A DNA stretch of 64,000 bases from assembly GCA_020631475.1 (NCBI GenBank), contig JAHDHE010000002.1, forward strand, positions 3,803 to 67,802, in the 5' to 3' direction. Both the position numbers and the translations under genes were made by a program. The stretch's first letter is position 1; each line of letters starts with the position of its first letter. The DNA is from Tenacibaculum sp. (lineage in GTDB: Bacteria; Bacteroidota; Bacteroidia; Flavobacteriales; Flavobacteriaceae). Positions 2,322-63,306 of the stretch are shown piece after piece. The notes beneath the pieces are model-generated. The model searched no databases, was not told the origin of the DNA, and was given only the letters and a program-made list of their open reading frames with translations.

Positions 2322-5303
2322 ATGCAAAACAAAGGTCTTATTAAATTATTTGCTGTCCTGTTTGGATTAGTGAGTTTGTACCAATTGTCGTTTACATTTT
2401 TTGCTAATAAAGTAGAAGATAGCGCAAAAGAGTACTCAAAAGAAAACGTTAAAGATAACAACGGTAGAGAGTTAGCTAGATATGAAAGAAAATATCTTGA
2501 TAGCGTAGCAAATAAAGAAGTATTAAATTTAGGAGTTGCTAAATACACTTACGATGATATCAGGGAGAAAGAAATGAACCTTGGTTTAGATTTAAAAGGT
2601 GGTATTAATGCAATTTTACAAGTATCTGTAAAAGATATCTTAATTGGGTTATCTAACAACTCAAAAAACACTGTTTTTACTGAAGCATTAGCAAAAGCTG
2701 ATGAAGCTCAAAAAGATAGTCAAGAAAATTATTTAGATTTATTCTATAACAACTTCGTAGAATTATCTGCAAACAAAGTAAAGTTAAGCGATCCAAGTAT
2801 TTTTGGAACTAAATCGTTACGTGACAAAATCGACTTTAATAAAACTAACGAACAAGTAAAATCGACTTTACAAGAAGAAATTAACACCTCTATTAATACT
2901 GCTTTCGAAGTATTACGTAGTCGTATTGATAAATTTGGTGTTGTTCAACCAAGCATTCAAAGAATTGGAACTTCTGGACGTATTCAAGTAGAATTGCCAG
3001 GAGCTAAAGATATTGATAGAGTTCAAAAATTATTACAAAGTACTGCCGAATTACAGTTTTGGGAAGTATACACAAATGCTGATGTACAAAACTTTTTCTT
3101 TACTGCAAATGCTAAAGTTGCTGAATTATTAAAAGATGACTCAACTACTGAAGTTGCTAAAGATTCGACGAAATCAGATAGTATTGATGATTTATTAGGA
3201 GAATCTTCAGATTCTACGGAAGTAGCTACTCAGAAAAATTTATTTACATATTTATTTCCTAATGTAGCTCAAAATCAACAACAAATAACATCTTTAGTTG
3301 CGCAAGCAAGAGTACAAGATACTGCTAAAGTTAATAGCCTTCTAGCTAATAAAGAAGTTAGAGCTTTATTACCAGCTAACTTAAAATATGTTAAGTTTTT
3401 ATGGGACTACAAAGCAAATCCTAGTACAGACGGAACAAACGATATTATAAGTTTATATGCAATAAAATCTAACAGAAATGACAAACCTTCTATTGACGGT
3501 GATGTAATTGCTGATGCAAAACAAGATTACGATCAAGTAAGTAAACCGATTGTATCTATGACGATGAACGGGATCGGTACTAAAAAATGGTCTAAGCTAA
3601 CTGGAGAAAACATAGGTAAACATGTTGCTATTGTACTAGACAACTATGTTTATACTGCACCAGTTATTAATGGACAATTAGGTAGTAACTCTTCTATTTC
3701 TGGTGGTTCTATGACTGTTAACGAAGCACAAGATATTGCAACAATTTTAAAAGCTGGTAAATTACCTGCTCCTGCAAGAATGATTCAAGCACAAGTTGTT
3801 GGACCATCTTTAGGTCAAGAATCTATTAATGCAAGTATGTGGTCTTTCGGATTAGCTATCTTATTAGTTTTAGGTTGGATGTTCTTATACTATGGTAGAG
3901 CTGGTTTATATGCAAACATCGCATTATTAGTAAACATCTTATTTATTTTCGGATGGTTAGTATCGTTTAACGCAGTATTAACATTACCTGGTATTGCTGG
4001 TATTATCTTAACCATAGGTATGTCGGTAGATGCGAACGTAATTATTTTCGAAAGAATTAAAGAAGCTTTAAGAGGTGGAAAAAGTTTAGCAACTGCAGTT
4101 GATGAAGGATTTAGTTTTAAAGGAGCTTTATCTGCAATTATTGATGCAAACATTACTACTTTCTTAACTGGAGTTATCTTATTTGTATTCGGAACAGGGC
4201 CAATTAAAGGTTTTGCTTATACTTTAATGTTAGGTATTGCTACTTCATTATTTACAGCAATTTTTATTACTCGTTTATTTATTGATGGAGCTGTTAACAA
4301 AGGAACGAAGTTACCTTTTAACACAAACATTTCTAAAAATTGGTTTAACAATATTAATATTGAATTCTTAAAGAAGCGTAAGTTAGCTTACATCATTTCT
4401 GGATTCTTTATTCTTGCAGGATTAGTTTCAATCTTTACTTTAGGATTAAAACAAGGGGTTGACTTTAAAGGAGGTCGTTCGTACGTTGTACGTTTCGATA
4501 AATCTATGAAAGCTAACGAAGTTGCTTCTTCTTTAAAAGATGCTTTTGGTTCTGCTCCTGAAGTTAAAACTTATGGTTCAGATAATCAATTAAAAATTAC
4601 TACTGCTTTTAAAATTGATGAAGAAGGTAGAGAAGTTGATGATCAAGTACAAACTGCATTATATAACGGATTAAAATCTTACATCGGAACAACTTCTTAT
4701 GAAGACTTTAAACCAGGATTTGAAAAAGCAGAAAATGCAAACGGAATTATGAGCTACATGAAAGTAGAGCCAACAATTGCCGATGATATTAAGCAAGCAG
4801 CTTTATGGGCGGTATTAGGTTCTTTACTTGTAGTATTTTTATATATCTTATTACGTTTTAGAAAAATGTCTTACTCTATTGGTGCAGTAGCAGCAGTATT
4901 CCACGATGTATTAGTGGTATTAGGAGTATTCTCAATTTTCTACAAGTTCATGCCTTTTGACATGGAAATTGGTCAATCATTTATTGCAGCAATTTTAACA
5001 GTAGTTGGATACTCGCTGAATGATACCGTAGTAATTTTCGATAGAATTAGAGAATATGCAGCCGAAAGTAAATCTTTAACTGCTGGTTTAGTAGACAAAG
5101 CATTAAGCAGCACATTAGGTAGAACAATCAATACCTCTTTAACTACATTATTAGTAATGTTAGCTATTTTCTTCTTCGGAGGAGATAGTATTAAAGGATT
5201 TATGTTCGCATTAATCGTTGGTGTAGTTGTTGGTACGTATTCATCATTATTCGTAGCAACACCAATTATGTTCGACGCTTCTAAAAAAGAAGACAAGAAA
5301 TAA
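2322..5303 (+). CDS. secDF: Protein translocase subunit SecDF (fused)
   Basis: 993 aa; LGLDLKGG, GMSVDANV, GVDFKGG, GYSLNDTVVIFDRIRE motifs. Confidence 0.97.
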   Translation: MQNKGLIKLFAVLFGLVSLYQLSFTFFANKVEDSAKEYSKENVKDNNGRELARYERKYLDSVANKEVLNLGVAKYTYDDIREKEMNLGLDLKGGINAILQVSVKDILIGLSNNSKNTVFTEALAKADEAQKDSQENYLDLFYNNFVELSANKVKLSDPSIFGTKSLRDKIDFNKTNEQVKSTLQEEINTSINTAFEVLRSRIDKFGVVQPSIQRIGTSGRIQVELPGAKDIDRVQKLLQSTAELQFWEVYTNADVQNFFFTANAKVAELLKDDSTTEVAKDSTKSDSIDDLLGESSDSTEVATQKNLFTYLFPNVAQNQQQITSLVAQARVQDTAKVNSLLANKEVRALLPANLKYVKFLWDYKANPSTDGTNDIISLYAIKSNRNDKPSIDGDVIADAKQDYDQVSKPIVSMTMNGIGTKKWSKLTGENIGKHVAIVLDNYVYTAPVINGQLGSNSSISGGSMTVNEAQDIATILKAGKLPAPARMIQAQVVGPSLGQESINASMWSFGLAILLVLGWMFLYYGRAGLYANIALLVNILFIFGWLVSFNAVLTLPGIAGIILTIGMSVDANVIIFERIKEALRGGKSLATAVDEGFSFKGALSAIIDANITTFLTGVILFVFGTGPIKGFAYTLMLGIATSLFTAIFITRLFIDGAVNKGTKLPFNTNISKNWFNNINIEFLKKRKLAYIISGFFILAGLVSIFTLGLKQGVDFKGGRSYVVRFDKSMKANEVASSLKDAFGSAPEVKTYGSDNQLKITTAFKIDEEGREVDDQVQTALYNGLKSYIGTTSYEDFKPGFEKAENANGIMSYMKVEPTIADDIKQAALWAVLGSLLVVFLYILLRFRKMSYSIGAVAAVFHDVLVVLGVFSIFYKFMPFDMEIGQSFIAAILTVVGYSLNDTVVIFDRIREYAAESKSLTAGLVDKALSSTLGRTINTSLTTLLVMLAIFFFGGDSIKGFMFALIVGVVVGTYSSLFVATPIMFDASKKEDKK

Positions 5304-5391: not shown

Positions 5392-6510
5392 ATGAAAATT
5401 ACAAAACTTCACGATTTATATTTTAAAGAATTTATTTCTTCTAACGAACTATCTAACATAGTTAAGTCGTTAGCAGAACAAGTAAAAAACGATTTACCAA
5501 AAGATGAAGTTCCTCTTTTTGTAGGAATTTTAAACGGATGTTTTGTTTTTACTGCCGATTTTTTACGTGAGTATAAAGGCGATTGTGAAATGACTTTTGT
5601 AAAGTTAGCTTCCTACGAAGGAACAACATCAACAGAAAATGTAAAAAAACTGATTGGTATCAACGAAGATTTAACAAATCGGACTGTTATCATTTTAGAA
5701 GATATTATAGATACGGGTACAACCTTACAAGAAATCTATGAAATCTTTAAATCAAAAAATATAAAAGAACTTAAAGTAGTAACTCTTTTCTTTAAGCCAG
5801 ATGTATACCGTAAAGAACTACCAATAAATTATATCGGAAAAAGTATTGAAGATAAATTTATTGTTGGTTACGGATTAGATTACAAAGGTTATGGAAGAAA
5901 CTTGCCTGCTATTTACCAATTAACAACACAACCCAAAATGAAAAATATCGTATTATTCGGCCCTCCGGGAGCAGGAAAAGGTACACAAGCTGAAGTATTA
6001 AAAGAAAAGTACAATTTAGTACATATATCTACTGGAGATGTATTCCGCTTTAATATTAAAAACAAAACAGAATTAGGCTTATTAGCTAAAACCTATATGG
6101 ATGACGGAAACTTAGTTCCAGACGAAGTTACCATTAGCATGTTAAAAGCTGAAGTTGAAAGAAATGCTGATGCTGCAGGTTTTATTTTTGATGGTTTTCC
6201 TAGAACAGAATCTCAAGCAGAAGCTTTAGATGCTTTTTTAGCTGAAAAGAACGAACGTATAAACGGAATGGTTGCTTTAGAAGTACCAGAAGATTTATTA
6301 GTTGATCGTTTATTAGAAAGAGGAAAAACGAGTGGTCGTACCGATGATATGGATGAAAGTAAAATCCGTAATCGTTTTAACGAATACAATACTAAAACAG
6401 CCGTTTTAAAAGATTTTTACCAAGCACAAGGTAATTACTACGGTGTAAACGGTGTAGGGTCTATTGAAGAGATCACACAACGCTTATCTGACGTGTTTGA
6501 CACATTATAA
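5392..6510 (+). CDS. adk: Hypoxanthine phosphoribosyltransferase-adenylate kinase fusion
   Basis: N-half has HPRT motifs (IILEDIIDTGTT, FIVGYGLDY); C-half from Met at 5938 has Adk motifs (GPPGAGKGTQ, HISTGD, FDGFPRT). Confidence 0.92.
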   Translation: MKITKLHDLYFKEFISSNELSNIVKSLAEQVKNDLPKDEVPLFVGILNGCFVFTADFLREYKGDCEMTFVKLASYEGTTSTENVKKLIGINEDLTNRTVIILEDIIDTGTTLQEIYEIFKSKNIKELKVVTLFFKPDVYRKELPINYIGKSIEDKFIVGYGLDYKGYGRNLPAIYQLTTQPKMKNIVLFGPPGAGKGTQAEVLKEKYNLVHISTGDVFRFNIKNKTELGLLAKTYMDDGNLVPDEVTISMLKAEVERNADAAGFIFDGFPRTESQAEALDAFLAEKNERINGMVALEVPEDLLVDRLLERGKTSGRTDDMDESKIRNRFNEYNTKTAVLKDFYQAQGNYYGVNGVGSIEEITQRLSDVFDTL

Positions 6511-26550: not shown

Positions 26551-27051
26551 ATGGATATATTACTTACCCTTCTAGGATTCTTTTTTGTTTGTTTAGGTAT
26601 AATTGGATCGTTTTTACCAATTTTACCAGGACCTATTACTAGTTGGATAGGACTATTGCTATTGCATTTAACCAAAGTTATTCCACAAGATTGGACTTTT
26701 CTTGGAATTACTTTAGCAATTGCAATACTTATATTTTTCTTAGATTATTTTATCCCTGCAATGGGTACAAAACGATTTGGCGGCACAAAATATGGTGTGT
26801 ACGGTACAACTATTGGATTAATAATTGGCCTATTCTCTCCTATTCCATTCGGAATATTAATAGGTGCTTTTTTCGGAGCATTGATAGGCGAACTTATTTA
26901 CGATAGTAATGATACTAACAGAGCTATAAAAGCTTCATTTGGTGCTTTTATAGGTTTTTTAACCTCTGTAACCATTAAGTTTTCGATTTCTTCAGTATAC
27001 TTTATATTATTTATAATGACGGTTTGGGAATATAAAAACGTTTTATTTTAG
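26551..27051 (+). CDS. DUF456-family membrane protein
   Basis: GSFLPILPGP, G.KRFGGTK.G, Gly-rich TM helices. Confidence 0.85.
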   Translation: MDILLTLLGFFFVCLGIIGSFLPILPGPITSWIGLLLLHLTKVIPQDWTFLGITLAIAILIFFLDYFIPAMGTKRFGGTKYGVYGTTIGLIIGLFSPIPFGILIGAFFGALIGELIYDSNDTNRAIKASFGAFIGFLTSVTIKFSISSVYFILFIMTVWEYKNVLF

Positions 27052-27064
27052 TAGAATTTAGAGC

Positions 27065-27172
27065 AAAAAAAAAGCAACCCATTTCAGGGAAGCTTTCCAT
27101 TGGTTAACAAAACCATGACACTATTTAAAGTGCCTAACAACACAACTAAATGCTACTTTATAAAAAAGCAGC
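27065..27172 (-). ncRNA. Candidate small RNA (~108 nt)
   Basis: Promoter TTG(27205-27203)-N19-TATATTTG(27183-27176); three short hairpins; terminator hairpin plus U9 at 27065-27096. Confidence 0.6.
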
Positions 27173-27270
27173 CTGCAAATATACGCCCTTTTTTAAAACC
27201 TACAAGTTTTTTCTTTTATTTTACAAAAAATGTGAATTTGTTATTCATTGTTTAATTCTTCAATTGATTG

Positions 27271-27308: not shown

Positions 27309-29006
27309 ATGCAATTATCAGAACAAGAAGTTGTACGTAGAGAAAAGTTAGGGAGATTACGAGAGTTAAATATTAACCCGTACCCTGCTGATTTATTTCC
27401 ATTAGATTCAAATTCAAAAAAAATAAAACAGGATTTTGAAGAAGGAAAAAAGGTGGTGATTGCTGGTAGATTAATGAGTCGTCGTATTCAAGGAAAAGCT
27501 TCTTTTGCTGAACTACAAGATAGTGAGGGGCGCATACAAGTTTACTTTAATAGAGATGAAATTTGTACGGGAGAAGACAAGACCTTATACAACGAAGTAT
27601 ATAAGAAATTATTAGATATTGGAGATTTCATTGGAATTGAGGGTGAATTGTTCACAACTCAGGTAGGTGAAAAAACTGTAATGGTTAAAGACTTTAAATT
27701 ATTAAGTAAATCTTTAAAACCACTACCGATACCAAAAGTAGATGCTGAAGGAAATACTTTCGACGGATTTACAGATCCTGAAATGCGTTACCGTCAGCGT
27801 TATGCTGATTTAGTGGTAAACCCACATGTAAAAGAAGTATTTGTAAAACGTACAAAATTATTCAATGCAATGCGTTCATTTTTTAATGATGCTGGTTATT
27901 TTGAAGTTGAAACTCCAATTTTACAACCAATTGCAGGTGGTGCAGCAGCAAGACCATTTATTACACATCACAATGCTTTAGATGTTCCTTTATACATGCG
28001 TATCGCAAACGAATTATACTTAAAGCGTTTAATTGTTGGTGGTTTTGACGGAGTTTACGAATTCTCTAAAAACTTCCGTAACGAAGGAATGGATAGAACT
28101 CATAATCCAGAGTTTACAGCAATGGAAATTTATGTAGCTTATAAAGACTACAATTGGATGATGGATTTCACAGAAAAATTATTAGAACATTGTGCGATTG
28201 CTGTTAACGGAACTACTGAGGCTACATTTGGAGAGCATCAGGTAGATTTTAAAGCTCCATATGCTCGTGTAACTATGGCAGATTCTATTAAGCATTTTAC
28301 TGGTTTTGATATTAACGGAAAGTCTGAAGCTGAGTTATTTGAAGCAGCAAAAGGAATGGGTATCGAAGTTGATGCTACAATGGGGAAAGGTAAATTAATT
28401 GATGAAATTTTTGGTGAAAAATGTGAAGGTAATTACATTCAACCAACTTTTATTACAGATTACCCAAAGGAAATGTCTCCACTTTGTAAAGAGCACAGAG
28501 ATAACCCTGAATTAACTGAGCGTTTTGAGTTAATGGTTTGTGGTAAAGAAATTGCAAATGCATATTCTGAATTAAACGACCCTATAGATCAGCGTGAGCG
28601 TTTCGAAGCTCAATTAGAATTAGCAAAACGTGGTGATGACGAAGCTAGTGAGTTTATAGATCAAGATTTTTTACGTGCTTTAGAGTATGGTATGCCCCCA
28701 ACATCTGGTTTAGGAATTGGTATGGATCGTTTAATTATGTATTTAACAAACAATCCTTCGATACAAGAAGTGTTATTTTTCCCTCAAATGAGACCTGAAA
28801 AAAAAGCCCCTACTGTTAAGTTAAATGATGATGAAAAAGCTGTATTAGCTTTAATTGAAAAAGCTGAAAGAATAGATTTAAATGAATTAAAAACTCAAAG
28901 TGGCTTATCAAATAAAAAATGGGATAAAACTATTAAAGGTTTAACAAAAAATAAACTTGCTAAAGTTGAAAAAACTGACGAAGGTTTAATTGTAGAAGTT
29001 GTTTAG
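27309..29006 (+). CDS. lysS: Lysine--tRNA ligase (class II)
   Basis: RYRQRYADL, GGAAARPF, FRNEG, HNPEFT, YGMPPTSGLGIGMDRL. Confidence 0.97.
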   Translation: MQLSEQEVVRREKLGRLRELNINPYPADLFPLDSNSKKIKQDFEEGKKVVIAGRLMSRRIQGKASFAELQDSEGRIQVYFNRDEICTGEDKTLYNEVYKKLLDIGDFIGIEGELFTTQVGEKTVMVKDFKLLSKSLKPLPIPKVDAEGNTFDGFTDPEMRYRQRYADLVVNPHVKEVFVKRTKLFNAMRSFFNDAGYFEVETPILQPIAGGAAARPFITHHNALDVPLYMRIANELYLKRLIVGGFDGVYEFSKNFRNEGMDRTHNPEFTAMEIYVAYKDYNWMMDFTEKLLEHCAIAVNGTTEATFGEHQVDFKAPYARVTMADSIKHFTGFDINGKSEAELFEAAKGMGIEVDATMGKGKLIDEIFGEKCEGNYIQPTFITDYPKEMSPLCKEHRDNPELTERFELMVCGKEIANAYSELNDPIDQRERFEAQLELAKRGDDEASEFIDQDFLRALEYGMPPTSGLGIGMDRLIMYLTNNPSIQEVLFFPQMRPEKKAPTVKLNDDEKAVLALIEKAERIDLNELKTQSGLSNKKWDKTIKGLTKNKLAKVEKTDEGLIVEVV

Positions 29007-55711: not shown

Positions 55712-55837
55712 ATGAGCAACAAAGAATACCCAACTTACGCTGCATTAGGCAACGCCAATGCTCGTAATACCACTCAACAATCTTTTTACGAAAAATTTAC
55801 AATGTGGTTTCGTGATTTCTTAGAAAATGCTGAATAA
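55712..55837 (+). CDS. Small hypothetical protein (41 aa), absent from the ORF track
   Basis: MSNKEYPTYAALGNANARNTTQQSFYEKFTMWFRDFLENAE; followed by its own terminator. Confidence 0.6.
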   Translation: MSNKEYPTYAALGNANARNTTQQSFYEKFTMWFRDFLENAE

Positions 55838-55857
55838 CATTTTCTATTTTATCGTAC

Positions 55858-55946: not shown

Positions 55947-55976
55947 TAGTTTTGCTAGCTTAACAACACAACAACA
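55947..55976 (+). promoter_or_regulatory. purH -7 box and short leader carrying TAACAACACAAC
   Basis: TAGTTTTG at 55947-55954; 12-mer at 55961-55972 shared with 5921-5932 and 27135-27146. Confidence 0.6.

Positions 55977-63233: not shown

Positions 63234-63306
<73 letters not shown>

Follow-up and report, generated by a model that had tools for sequence, protein, structure and literature searches.

We identified a candidate small RNA (sRNA) of ∼107 nucleotides (nt), encoded on the minus strand of a 64 000-nt stretch of a Tenacibaculum sp. genome (GenBank assembly GCA_020631475.1, contig JAHDHE010000002.1, positions 3803 to 67 802; hereafter the window). The element folds into a defined structure and is conserved across the family Flavobacteriaceae with covarying stems; sites complementary to its unpaired seed are strand- and function-specific, and these sites are lost in genomes in which the seed has changed. 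It is probable, judging from these genome comparisons, that the element is a trans-acting sRNA: the seed likely blocks ribosome loading on nucleotide-synthesis mRNAs, and the seed together with a second conserved segment would open a hairpin in the leader of pnp (the gene encoding PNPase). The original prediction, made from the window alone, was a trans-acting translational regulator of purine genes. Conservation, strand-specific enrichment of the sites and site loss upon seed change support such a regulator, but the purine-only target set was too narrow: pyrimidine, pentose-phosphate and serine genes are included, and the most conserved partner is the pnp leader, matched through two segments. 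The parts of the element are listed here, with the 5′ end of the RNA placed at the first base of hairpin 1.

27176..27205, minus strand: predicted Bacteroidota housekeeping promoter, with TTG at 27205-27203, a 19-nt spacer and the −7 box TATATTTG at 27183-27176 (from sequence)
27065..27172, minus strand: candidate sRNA, ∼107 nt (fold, alignment and covariance-model matches; transcription predicted)
27152..27172, minus strand: hairpin 1, GCUGCUUU/AAAGUAGC, variable in sequence with pairing kept, missing or replaced in some tRNA-linked loci (fold, covariation)
27135..27151, minus strand: unpaired 17-nt seed region, with the core GUUGUGUUG at 27146-27138 (fold, alignment)
27117..27134, minus strand: hairpin 2, GGCACU/AGUGUC, fully variable in sequence with pairing kept (fold, covariation)
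27101..27115, minus strand: hairpin 3, UGGUU/AACCA (GGUU...AACC), with a variable loop (fold, alignments)
27092..27103, minus strand: second conserved segment (site 2), CCAAUGGAAAGC, complement of the pnp leader, overlapping hairpin 3 and the terminator stem (family pattern, duplexes)
27065..27096, minus strand: predicted intrinsic terminator with a 2x2 internal loop and a U9 run (fold, alignment, covariation)

The promoter, the three hairpins, the unpaired stretch and the hairpin with a U9 end had all been proposed in the original prediction, and all were recovered. The minus strand from 27175 to 27066 folds at −33.9 kcal/mol (z −3.82; 0 out of 200 shuffles as good), and both its minimum free energy and its centroid fold contain hairpins 1–3, the 17-nt unpaired stretch and the U9 terminator; the plus strand of the element folds more weakly (−19.5 kcal/mol, z −2.18). 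A generic terminator scan called SL1 and SL2 but not the 3′ terminator, the stem of which is interrupted by an internal loop. The −7 box TATATTTG also precedes the tRNA gene at 63306 of the window, and a box of the type TAnnTTTG, the −7 consensus in Bacteroidota (PMC7366714), is found at the equivalent position in 22 out of 24 scanned loci (21 with TAnnTTTG and one with TATATTCG; the exceptions are L002, with TATATTTA, and L024, with no call).

A first DNA search of 40 relatives recovered the intergenic region within the same genus, and the element could be read in 24 loci including the window. Among 21 aligned same-genus sequences no variation is seen in the unpaired GTTGTGTTG or in most of the 3′ segment, and hairpins 1 and 2 vary in sequence. 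The unpaired segments are more conserved than the stems; the seed core GUUGUGUUG is the same in 21 out of 21. Changes on both sides of a pair are seen in nine out of 27 pairs of a structure set by hand (plain MAFFT alignment; 0 out of 500 shuffles as high, and slid controls far lower). For hairpin 1, six out of seven pairs have changed on both sides; for hairpin 2 the count is three out of eight in alignment A1 and eight out of eight in alignment A3, the pair counts of which come from a fit to the covariance model. RNAalifold did not recover hairpin 2 from the MAFFT alignment, because of misalignment.

The original prediction had suggested a covariance model built from lysS-upstream regions. 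The stems do covary and covariance models find matches across the family, but the homologues are not limited to regions upstream of lysS. Among the loci listed from a pattern scan of named genomes, the model matched 42 out of 80, most of them labelled Tenacibaculum, Polaribacter, Lutibacter, Wenyingzhuangia, Ochrovirga, Aureivirga, Urechidicola or other Flavobacteriaceae; the copy in Tenacibaculum pelagium is identical to that in the window. Covariance model R1 has matches in 63 out of 150 Flavobacteriaceae genomes, and the broader model R2, applied to 20 of the 87 R1-negative genomes, gave 17 matches, 16 of which are recognisable homologues on reading. In a phylum-wide draw all 10 Flavobacteriaceae genomes matched, and the 140 genomes outside the family gave 11 weak matches, all without the site-2 segment on reading; two weak matches in 16 genomes from other families of the same order also lack this segment. 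Across 94 distinct family sequences (a few loci being counted twice with differing ends) the core seed is found in 84 and the pattern of the second segment in 87, which bears out the expectation that the seed would be conserved.

The genomic context of the element differs among genera. Out of 29 family loci whose contexts were read, 19 follow tRNA-Asp(GTC) directly on its 3′ side and in the same orientation, six are beside lysS and four are beside neither. The lysS-upstream location noted for the window holds in the clade of the window, but most genera carry the RNA behind tRNA-Asp; tRNA-Asp linkage was not seen in the genome of the window, where the element is beside lysS with its own predicted promoter. 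Many tRNA-linked loci (L155-L178, L242-L248) have a hairpin with a U7-U8 run that separates tRNA-Asp from the seed and that TTGC/GCAA pairing could often lengthen; this U-rich hairpin may be a leaky or conditional terminator that sets the RNA level. Several genomes have two to three copies of the RNA (L155, L168, L249/L262/L267, L391/L404 and L396/L405), and in some of them tRNA-Asp genes or 3′ fragments of tRNAs are repeated too, which is what integration at tRNA-Asp would be expected to leave.

These contexts bear on a simpler explanation, in which the element is just a bidirectional terminator or a cis-element of lysS, the DUF456 gene or tRNA-Asp, and in which low-complexity GT/CA sequence gives rise to the complementarity as a side effect. 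This is largely refuted, and we give it next to no chance: it would suit a location at a convergent gene end, the weak Rfam matches (which fall on terminator parts only) and the A/C-rich sequence common in these genomes, but the element moves intact between the lysS and tRNA-Asp contexts, its unpaired segments are conserved above the stems, and it has strand- and function-specific sites and two-site pairing with pnp, as described in the following.

The 12-mer TAACAACACAAC occurs exactly three times in the window, at 5921-5932, 27135-27146 and 55961-55972 (with one mismatch allowed, 0.65 occurrences are expected, and three were reached by one out of 100 shuffles). The two sites outside the element were correctly placed by the original prediction, and NCBIfam confirmed the identities of their genes, purH and adk.

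55961..55972, plus strand: seed-complementary site, 4 nt before the purH ATG (55977), directly behind the promoter-like box TAGTTTTG
5921..5932, plus strand: seed-complementary site, 5 nt before the internal adk ATG (5938), inside the fused hpt-adk frame 5392-6510

In the genome assembly of the window (G000; 1.66 Mb, 59% complete), purH, adk, purF, purD, purM, purK, carB, rpe and serA each have the complement of the seed or a close variant in sense orientation at their start, and guaA and pyrF have it within codons 2–5. We scored 1390 simply called open reading frames, among which 18 nucleotide-synthesis genes had been set by protein motifs, with identities checked afterwards. The original prediction warned that AAC-rich leaders are generic in Bacteroidetes and that the motif might be equally common before unrelated genes; it is not, since the 9-mer is found at −35 to +18 of six out of 18 nucleotide-synthesis genes vs two out of 1372 others (rpe and serA). 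All eight of these sites are in sense orientation (0 antisense, 0.45 expected). The original prediction also anticipated an enrichment of pur and gua genes in a genome scan; by duplex energy, eight out of the 18 nucleotide-synthesis genes are within the top 2% (Fisher p 5e-10). No signal is seen for six genes of the class, namely nrdA, ndk, hpt-adk (at its first ATG), pyrC, thyA and cmk, and purN, purL, purC, purE, purB, purA, guaB and others were not detected in the assembly, which is incomplete. Counts of CAACACAAC-N0-20-ATG over 80 genomes were uninformative, as they are not gene-linked and the built-in reversed control shares the motif.

We scored orthologous leaders of purH, purD, purF, guaA, purM and carB against the canonical seed, calling a site strong if its duplex is −11 kcal/mol or stronger. 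Strong sites are found in 64 out of 124 leaders from 37 canonical-seed genomes, in two out of 30 leaders from eight changed-seed genomes, and in none of 22 leaders from six outgroup genomes of other families. The changed-seed genomes keep the genes yet lose the sites; as three of the eight are apparently close relatives, there are about six independent seed-change events. Site content is patchy from gene to gene across the family genomes. For rpe a strong site is found in four out of five genomes tested (the exception is the changed-seed genome G191), and serA orthologues were recovered in only one out of five with an N-terminal query. The changed seed of G194 pairs with the start of its own guaA at −19.1, stronger than all 1390 background leaders of G000. 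Two features expected of a trans-acting base-pairing sRNA are therefore observed: the unpaired seed is conserved, and so are coherent complementary sites on unlinked mRNAs.

The pnp leader is the most conserved partner. In G000, TTTCCATTGG, the complement of site 2, precedes a seed match by 16 nt, the order required for an antiparallel duplex; the distances to the start of PNPase are 60 nt for the former and 44 nt for the latter. Both sites are found in the rpsO-pnp intergenic region across the family: the site-2 duplex is −10.8 or stronger in 26 out of 27 genomes, and the seed duplex −14 or stronger in 25 out of 27. Among eight further genomes, six have both sites (in one of them at a distance of 250 nt upstream), site 2 is degenerate in a seventh and the sequence of the eighth was read in part; none of six outgroup genomes from other families has them. 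Cognate RNA-leader pairs outscore non-cognate ones (permutation p 1.5e-4 and 5e-5 over 27 genomes, values inflated by kinship), with G115 and G191 retained in the counts although their seeds were badly cut, which lowered their scores. The non-Watson-Crick oppositions in these duplexes are 32 G-U (15 of them at one single position), six A-C and 16 other mismatches, out of 297 positions; the excess of G-U over A-C favours RNA-RNA pairing in the proposed orientation over a paralogous opposite-strand copy. Matching changes in RNA and leader are seen in G138 (at both sites), G179, G191, G043, G306 and G151. A layout of the SraG type, cis-encoded and antisense, was not found: in G000 the RNA is on contig C47 and the pnp leader on contig C53.

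The predicted fold of the pnp leader alone (32 leaders) leaves the seed match open (mean unpaired 0.85) and site 2 paired (0.34). The leader hairpin alternates between G-C and U-A at one position and among U-A, C-G and G-C at another (25 leaders, with the best register picked by script). In G063 (L421) there is an insertion of ∼190 nt in the leader: the pairing sites are ∼250 nt upstream, and the GACCATTG arm is still near the start codon.

This leader allows for an improbable alternative, in which the RNA represses nucleotide-synthesis genes, but rpsO-pnp transcripts trap and inactivate it at two to three segments, and high rpsO-pnp transcription thus leaves the pur genes derepressed. Cofold models of the RNA with the pnp leader show multi-segment pairing that extends to the terminator stem and U-tail in several cases, the sites are 40–260 nt away from the pnp start codon, the pnp and purF mRNAs are in one fine expression cluster in F. 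psychrophilum (purH, guaA and purD are outside it; PMC9723704), and the intercistronic chbBC trap for ChiX provides a precedent (PMC13501541). The leader keeps a covarying hairpin of its own, however, in which site 2 is masked and the seed match exposed; this looks like a switch acting on pnp itself, and a trap would have no obvious need of it.

Still less probable is that PNPase homeostasis was the original and is the main job of the RNA, with the CA-rich sites at nucleotide genes having another purpose, such as binding a protein to the RNA, enhancing translation as unstructured sequence or making early transcription just behind the promoter sensitive to nucleotides. Pairing with pnp is kept in the changed-seed genomes G191, G179, G138 and G043, where most pur sites are absent; many sites are ≤20 nt behind a TAnnTTTG box; and shuffled seeds reach a mean area under the curve of 0.70 on the nucleotide-gene class, so leaders of this class are generally C/A-rich. 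Against this reading, sites are lost in changed-seed genomes that keep the genes, some sites are away from promoters (the internal adk start, the 3′ end of glnA and coding codons), and the changed G194 seed matches its own guaA.

The sign of the effect on mRNAs is suggested by the positions of the sites. That the RNA stabilises or activates all of its partners (pur, pyr and pnp), e.g. by shielding 5′ ends from nucleases, seems very improbable: it would agree with most sites being at the very 5′ terminus of mRNAs that have a short leader or none, and with the positive co-expression of pnp and purF in F. psychrophilum (PMC9723704), but the sites abut or overlap start codons, and binding of the Bacteroidota sRNAs GibS and FopS at such positions represses (PMC7366714, PMC11697453).

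The proposed trans-acting regulator would work as follows. In the Tenacibaculum/Polaribacter/Lutibacter clade the RNA would be made from its own promoter, and in other genera as a 3′ trailer of pre-tRNA-Asp. The core GUUGUGUUG would pair with CAACACAAC in the ∼25 nt ahead of the start codon, or within codons 2–5, of purH, purF, purD, purM, purK, guaA, carB, carA, pyrF, adk, gmk, rpe and serA, and their translation would be repressed; we infer repression from the position of the sites, which adjoin or span the start codon, by analogy with GibS and FopS. On pnp, the seed would dock on a CA-rich loop, and CCAAUGRRAAGC would then displace the 3′ arm of the leader hairpin. The outcome for pnp is tentative: PNPase output may be raised, the leader acting as a trap for the RNA is a less likely outcome, and repression of pnp is slightly more doubtful again. 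The net effect would be that one RNA shifts the cell between de novo nucleotide synthesis and RNA recycling to nucleoside diphosphates.

Several observations weigh against this mechanism. The genomes are related, so all p-values are overstated. G010, G022 and G085 have the canonical seed and few strong sites; scored with their own seeds, only three out of 19 leaders from five changed-seed genomes are in the top 1% of the G000 background; and four to five out of 150 shuffled seeds equal the real seed in enrichment (all of the five best shown keep GU-rich cores that resemble it). All three testable pre-registered predictions of compensation at site 2 failed (G071 pairs via G-U only, G052 has a mismatch and G067 a bulge). 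Blocking both sites in the pnp leader raises the predicted accessibility of the start region only from 0.51 to 0.57 (13 up and 3 down out of 32), with no predicted opening in G000, whose leader hairpin is poor. In many tRNA-linked loci a terminator-like hairpin separates the tRNA from the seed. As to expression, a seawater metatranscriptome yields two short, unstranded contigs of relatives that cover only 27063-27113. The RNA is not among the independent transcripts of the F. psychrophilum map, and only a 32-nt 3′ segment was called after tRNA-Asp of the mapped strain, the presence of the RNA at that place in that strain being unconfirmed (PMC9723704, accessible parts). Finally, the co-clustering of pnp and purF is more readily reconciled with control of the same sign, or with plain growth-rate control, than with control of opposite signs.

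Sequencing runs X1 and X2 were rejected as transcription evidence, as they cover small shares of the stretch with unstranded contigs of relatives. The F. psychrophilum tRNA-Asp borders restriction-modification and hypothetical genes, and the rpsO-pnp intergenic region is transcribed in that strain (PMC9723704). Among its RNAs Rfp1-89 (supplements with cells readable to 400 characters, the SI appendix apart) the seed string was found once, in the unrelated antisense Rfp1, and one spelling of site 2 had no match in the readable supplements; the table of transcription start sites, whose windows reach ∼10 nt into transcripts, has no CAACACAAC and one uninformative related match, and pnp is not listed in the accessible part of supplement file 8 (all PMC9723704).

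Rfam 15 has no family at gathering threshold on the element, in keeping with the remark in the original prediction that it was not recognised as a named RNA family. The scan of the window found one tRNA only, that of 20 homologous loci tRNAs only, and that of 14 target loci the S15-Flavobacteria leader of rpsO only; Flavo-1, 6S-flavo and Actino-pnp RNAs (Weinberg 2010, PMC2864571) had no match in any of these scans. The best scores on the element in an E-value scan are Phe_leader (21.2 out of 55 bits) and FopS (18.9 out of 56 bits), and the FopS/GibS model RF04319 reaches its 18.9 bits (cut-off 56) on the terminator end only, so the element does not belong to that family. GibS and FopS of Bacteroides thetaiotaomicron use single-stranded seeds (two in GibS) to pair with translation-initiation regions and repress (PMC7366714, PMC11697453); together with MasB, another trans-acting sRNA of this species known here from a review, they resemble the present RNA as trans-acting sRNAs of the same phylum. 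However, the published R1′ seed consensus of FopS differs from the present seed, FopS and GibS consist of a single 5′ stretch and a terminator whereas the present RNA has a four-hairpin fold, the sequences are unalike, and the targets in Flavobacteriaceae are nucleotide synthesis and pnp rather than glycan use.

SraG of Escherichia coli shares the pnp-leader partner: it pairs with the rpsO-pnp intergenic leader in PNPase homeostasis (PMC5029454), but is a cis-encoded antisense RNA that represses pnp, whereas the present RNA is encoded elsewhere, pairs in two to three discontinuous segments and has multi-gene targets. Most family members, being directly behind tRNA-Asp, resemble 3′ETS-leuZ of E. 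coli, a functional RNA from a tRNA 3′ trailer that acts as a sponge for RyhB and RybB (PMC13501541); unlike it, the present RNA seems to act on mRNAs and ends in a terminator of its own, and in one clade it has left the tRNA and has a predicted promoter of its own. The hairpin-arm invasion predicted on the pnp leader also has a parallel, although accessibility calculations support activation only weakly. DsrA, RprA and ArcZ activate rpoS by invading one arm of a leader hairpin and freeing the other, in an Hfq-dependent manner in enterobacteria. The PurR regulon of E. coli resembles the present target set in its purine, carbamoyl-phosphate and one-carbon genes. So does the set of genes under the ZMP/ZTP (pfl) riboswitch (gene list in PMC2864571). 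PurR is a DNA-binding protein and the riboswitch acts in cis, whereas the present RNA would act in trans; scans for a ZMP/ZTP riboswitch in G000 (59% complete) and at purH were negative. The present RNA is not a member of any of these systems.

Two genes, assigned by gene identity checks, flank the element.

27309..29006, plus strand: lysS, divergent neighbour; its linkage is clade-specific and it is not the regulated gene
26551..27051, plus strand: DUF456 gene, convergent neighbour; such a gene also adjoins the tRNA-Asp-linked copy L163

We rejected a role as a lysS leader (the element is upstream of the lysS promoter-like box, and away from lysS in other genera) and a CsrB-like decoy on the plus strand (single copy, poorer fold and no U-tail on that strand).

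Several side observations concern the target genes. hpt and adk form one open frame of 372 aa (5392-6510, plus strand), in which the seed site is the linker; they are fused in three out of five relatives, and in G314, where the genes are separate, ACACAAC is found directly after the hpt stop. A 41-codon open frame (55713-55838, plus strand) lies between the upstream gene and the purH promoter region. guaA is apparently leaderless, with a TAnnTTTG-like box 3 nt before the ATG in most family genomes (L191, i.e. G000:C98:13606 plus; L298-L322), and its seed site is encoded in codons 2–5 (MQQHN/MQHN). The purM match in G138 (L458) contains one TAA stop. A seed-complementary site is located just before the terminator in the 3′ untranslated end of glnA (GlnII type; L197, G000:C45, ∼4358-4400, plus strand), present in G006 and not in G155 or G191; it could be a 3′-end sponge or a further target. 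Other high-ranking start regions in G000 are those of an EngB-like GTPase, PEP carboxykinase, rpiB, nrdB, gmk, carA and pyrG, as well as aspartate aminotransferase, P5C dehydrogenase and an NhaC-family transporter, and these may be additional targets.

A full-text literature search (subscription papers and the SI appendix of PMC9723704 apart) found no description of the present RNA, and the accessible parts of PMC13750123, PMC11212332 and PMC10989914 have nothing on it; nor did the literature searched describe control of nucleotide synthesis in Flavobacteriaceae or a family-wide sRNA regulon. It is a real family-wide sRNA candidate with a nucleotide-supply regulon, and probably hitherto undescribed.

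One could further speculate, drawing on general knowledge of PNPase and with rather low expectation of being right, that PNPase sets the level of the RNA derived from the tRNA-Asp trailer: with high nucleotide pools or slow PNPase the RNA would accumulate, translation of pur, pyr, car, serA and rpe would be turned off, and pnp would be turned on by strand displacement. If so, RNA turnover itself would be the sensor of nucleotide supply, replacing a PurR-type protein or a riboswitch. Flavobacteriaceae are major degraders of organic matter in the sea, soil and fresh water, and for this family our result supplies a candidate regulator, a target list and exact pairing positions. If true, the proposed regulator would be among the few cases in which sRNA-target co-evolution can be read from genomes alone, and would represent a new combination: an sRNA with a PurR-like gene set, coupled to PNPase and, in most genera, made as a tRNA trailer.
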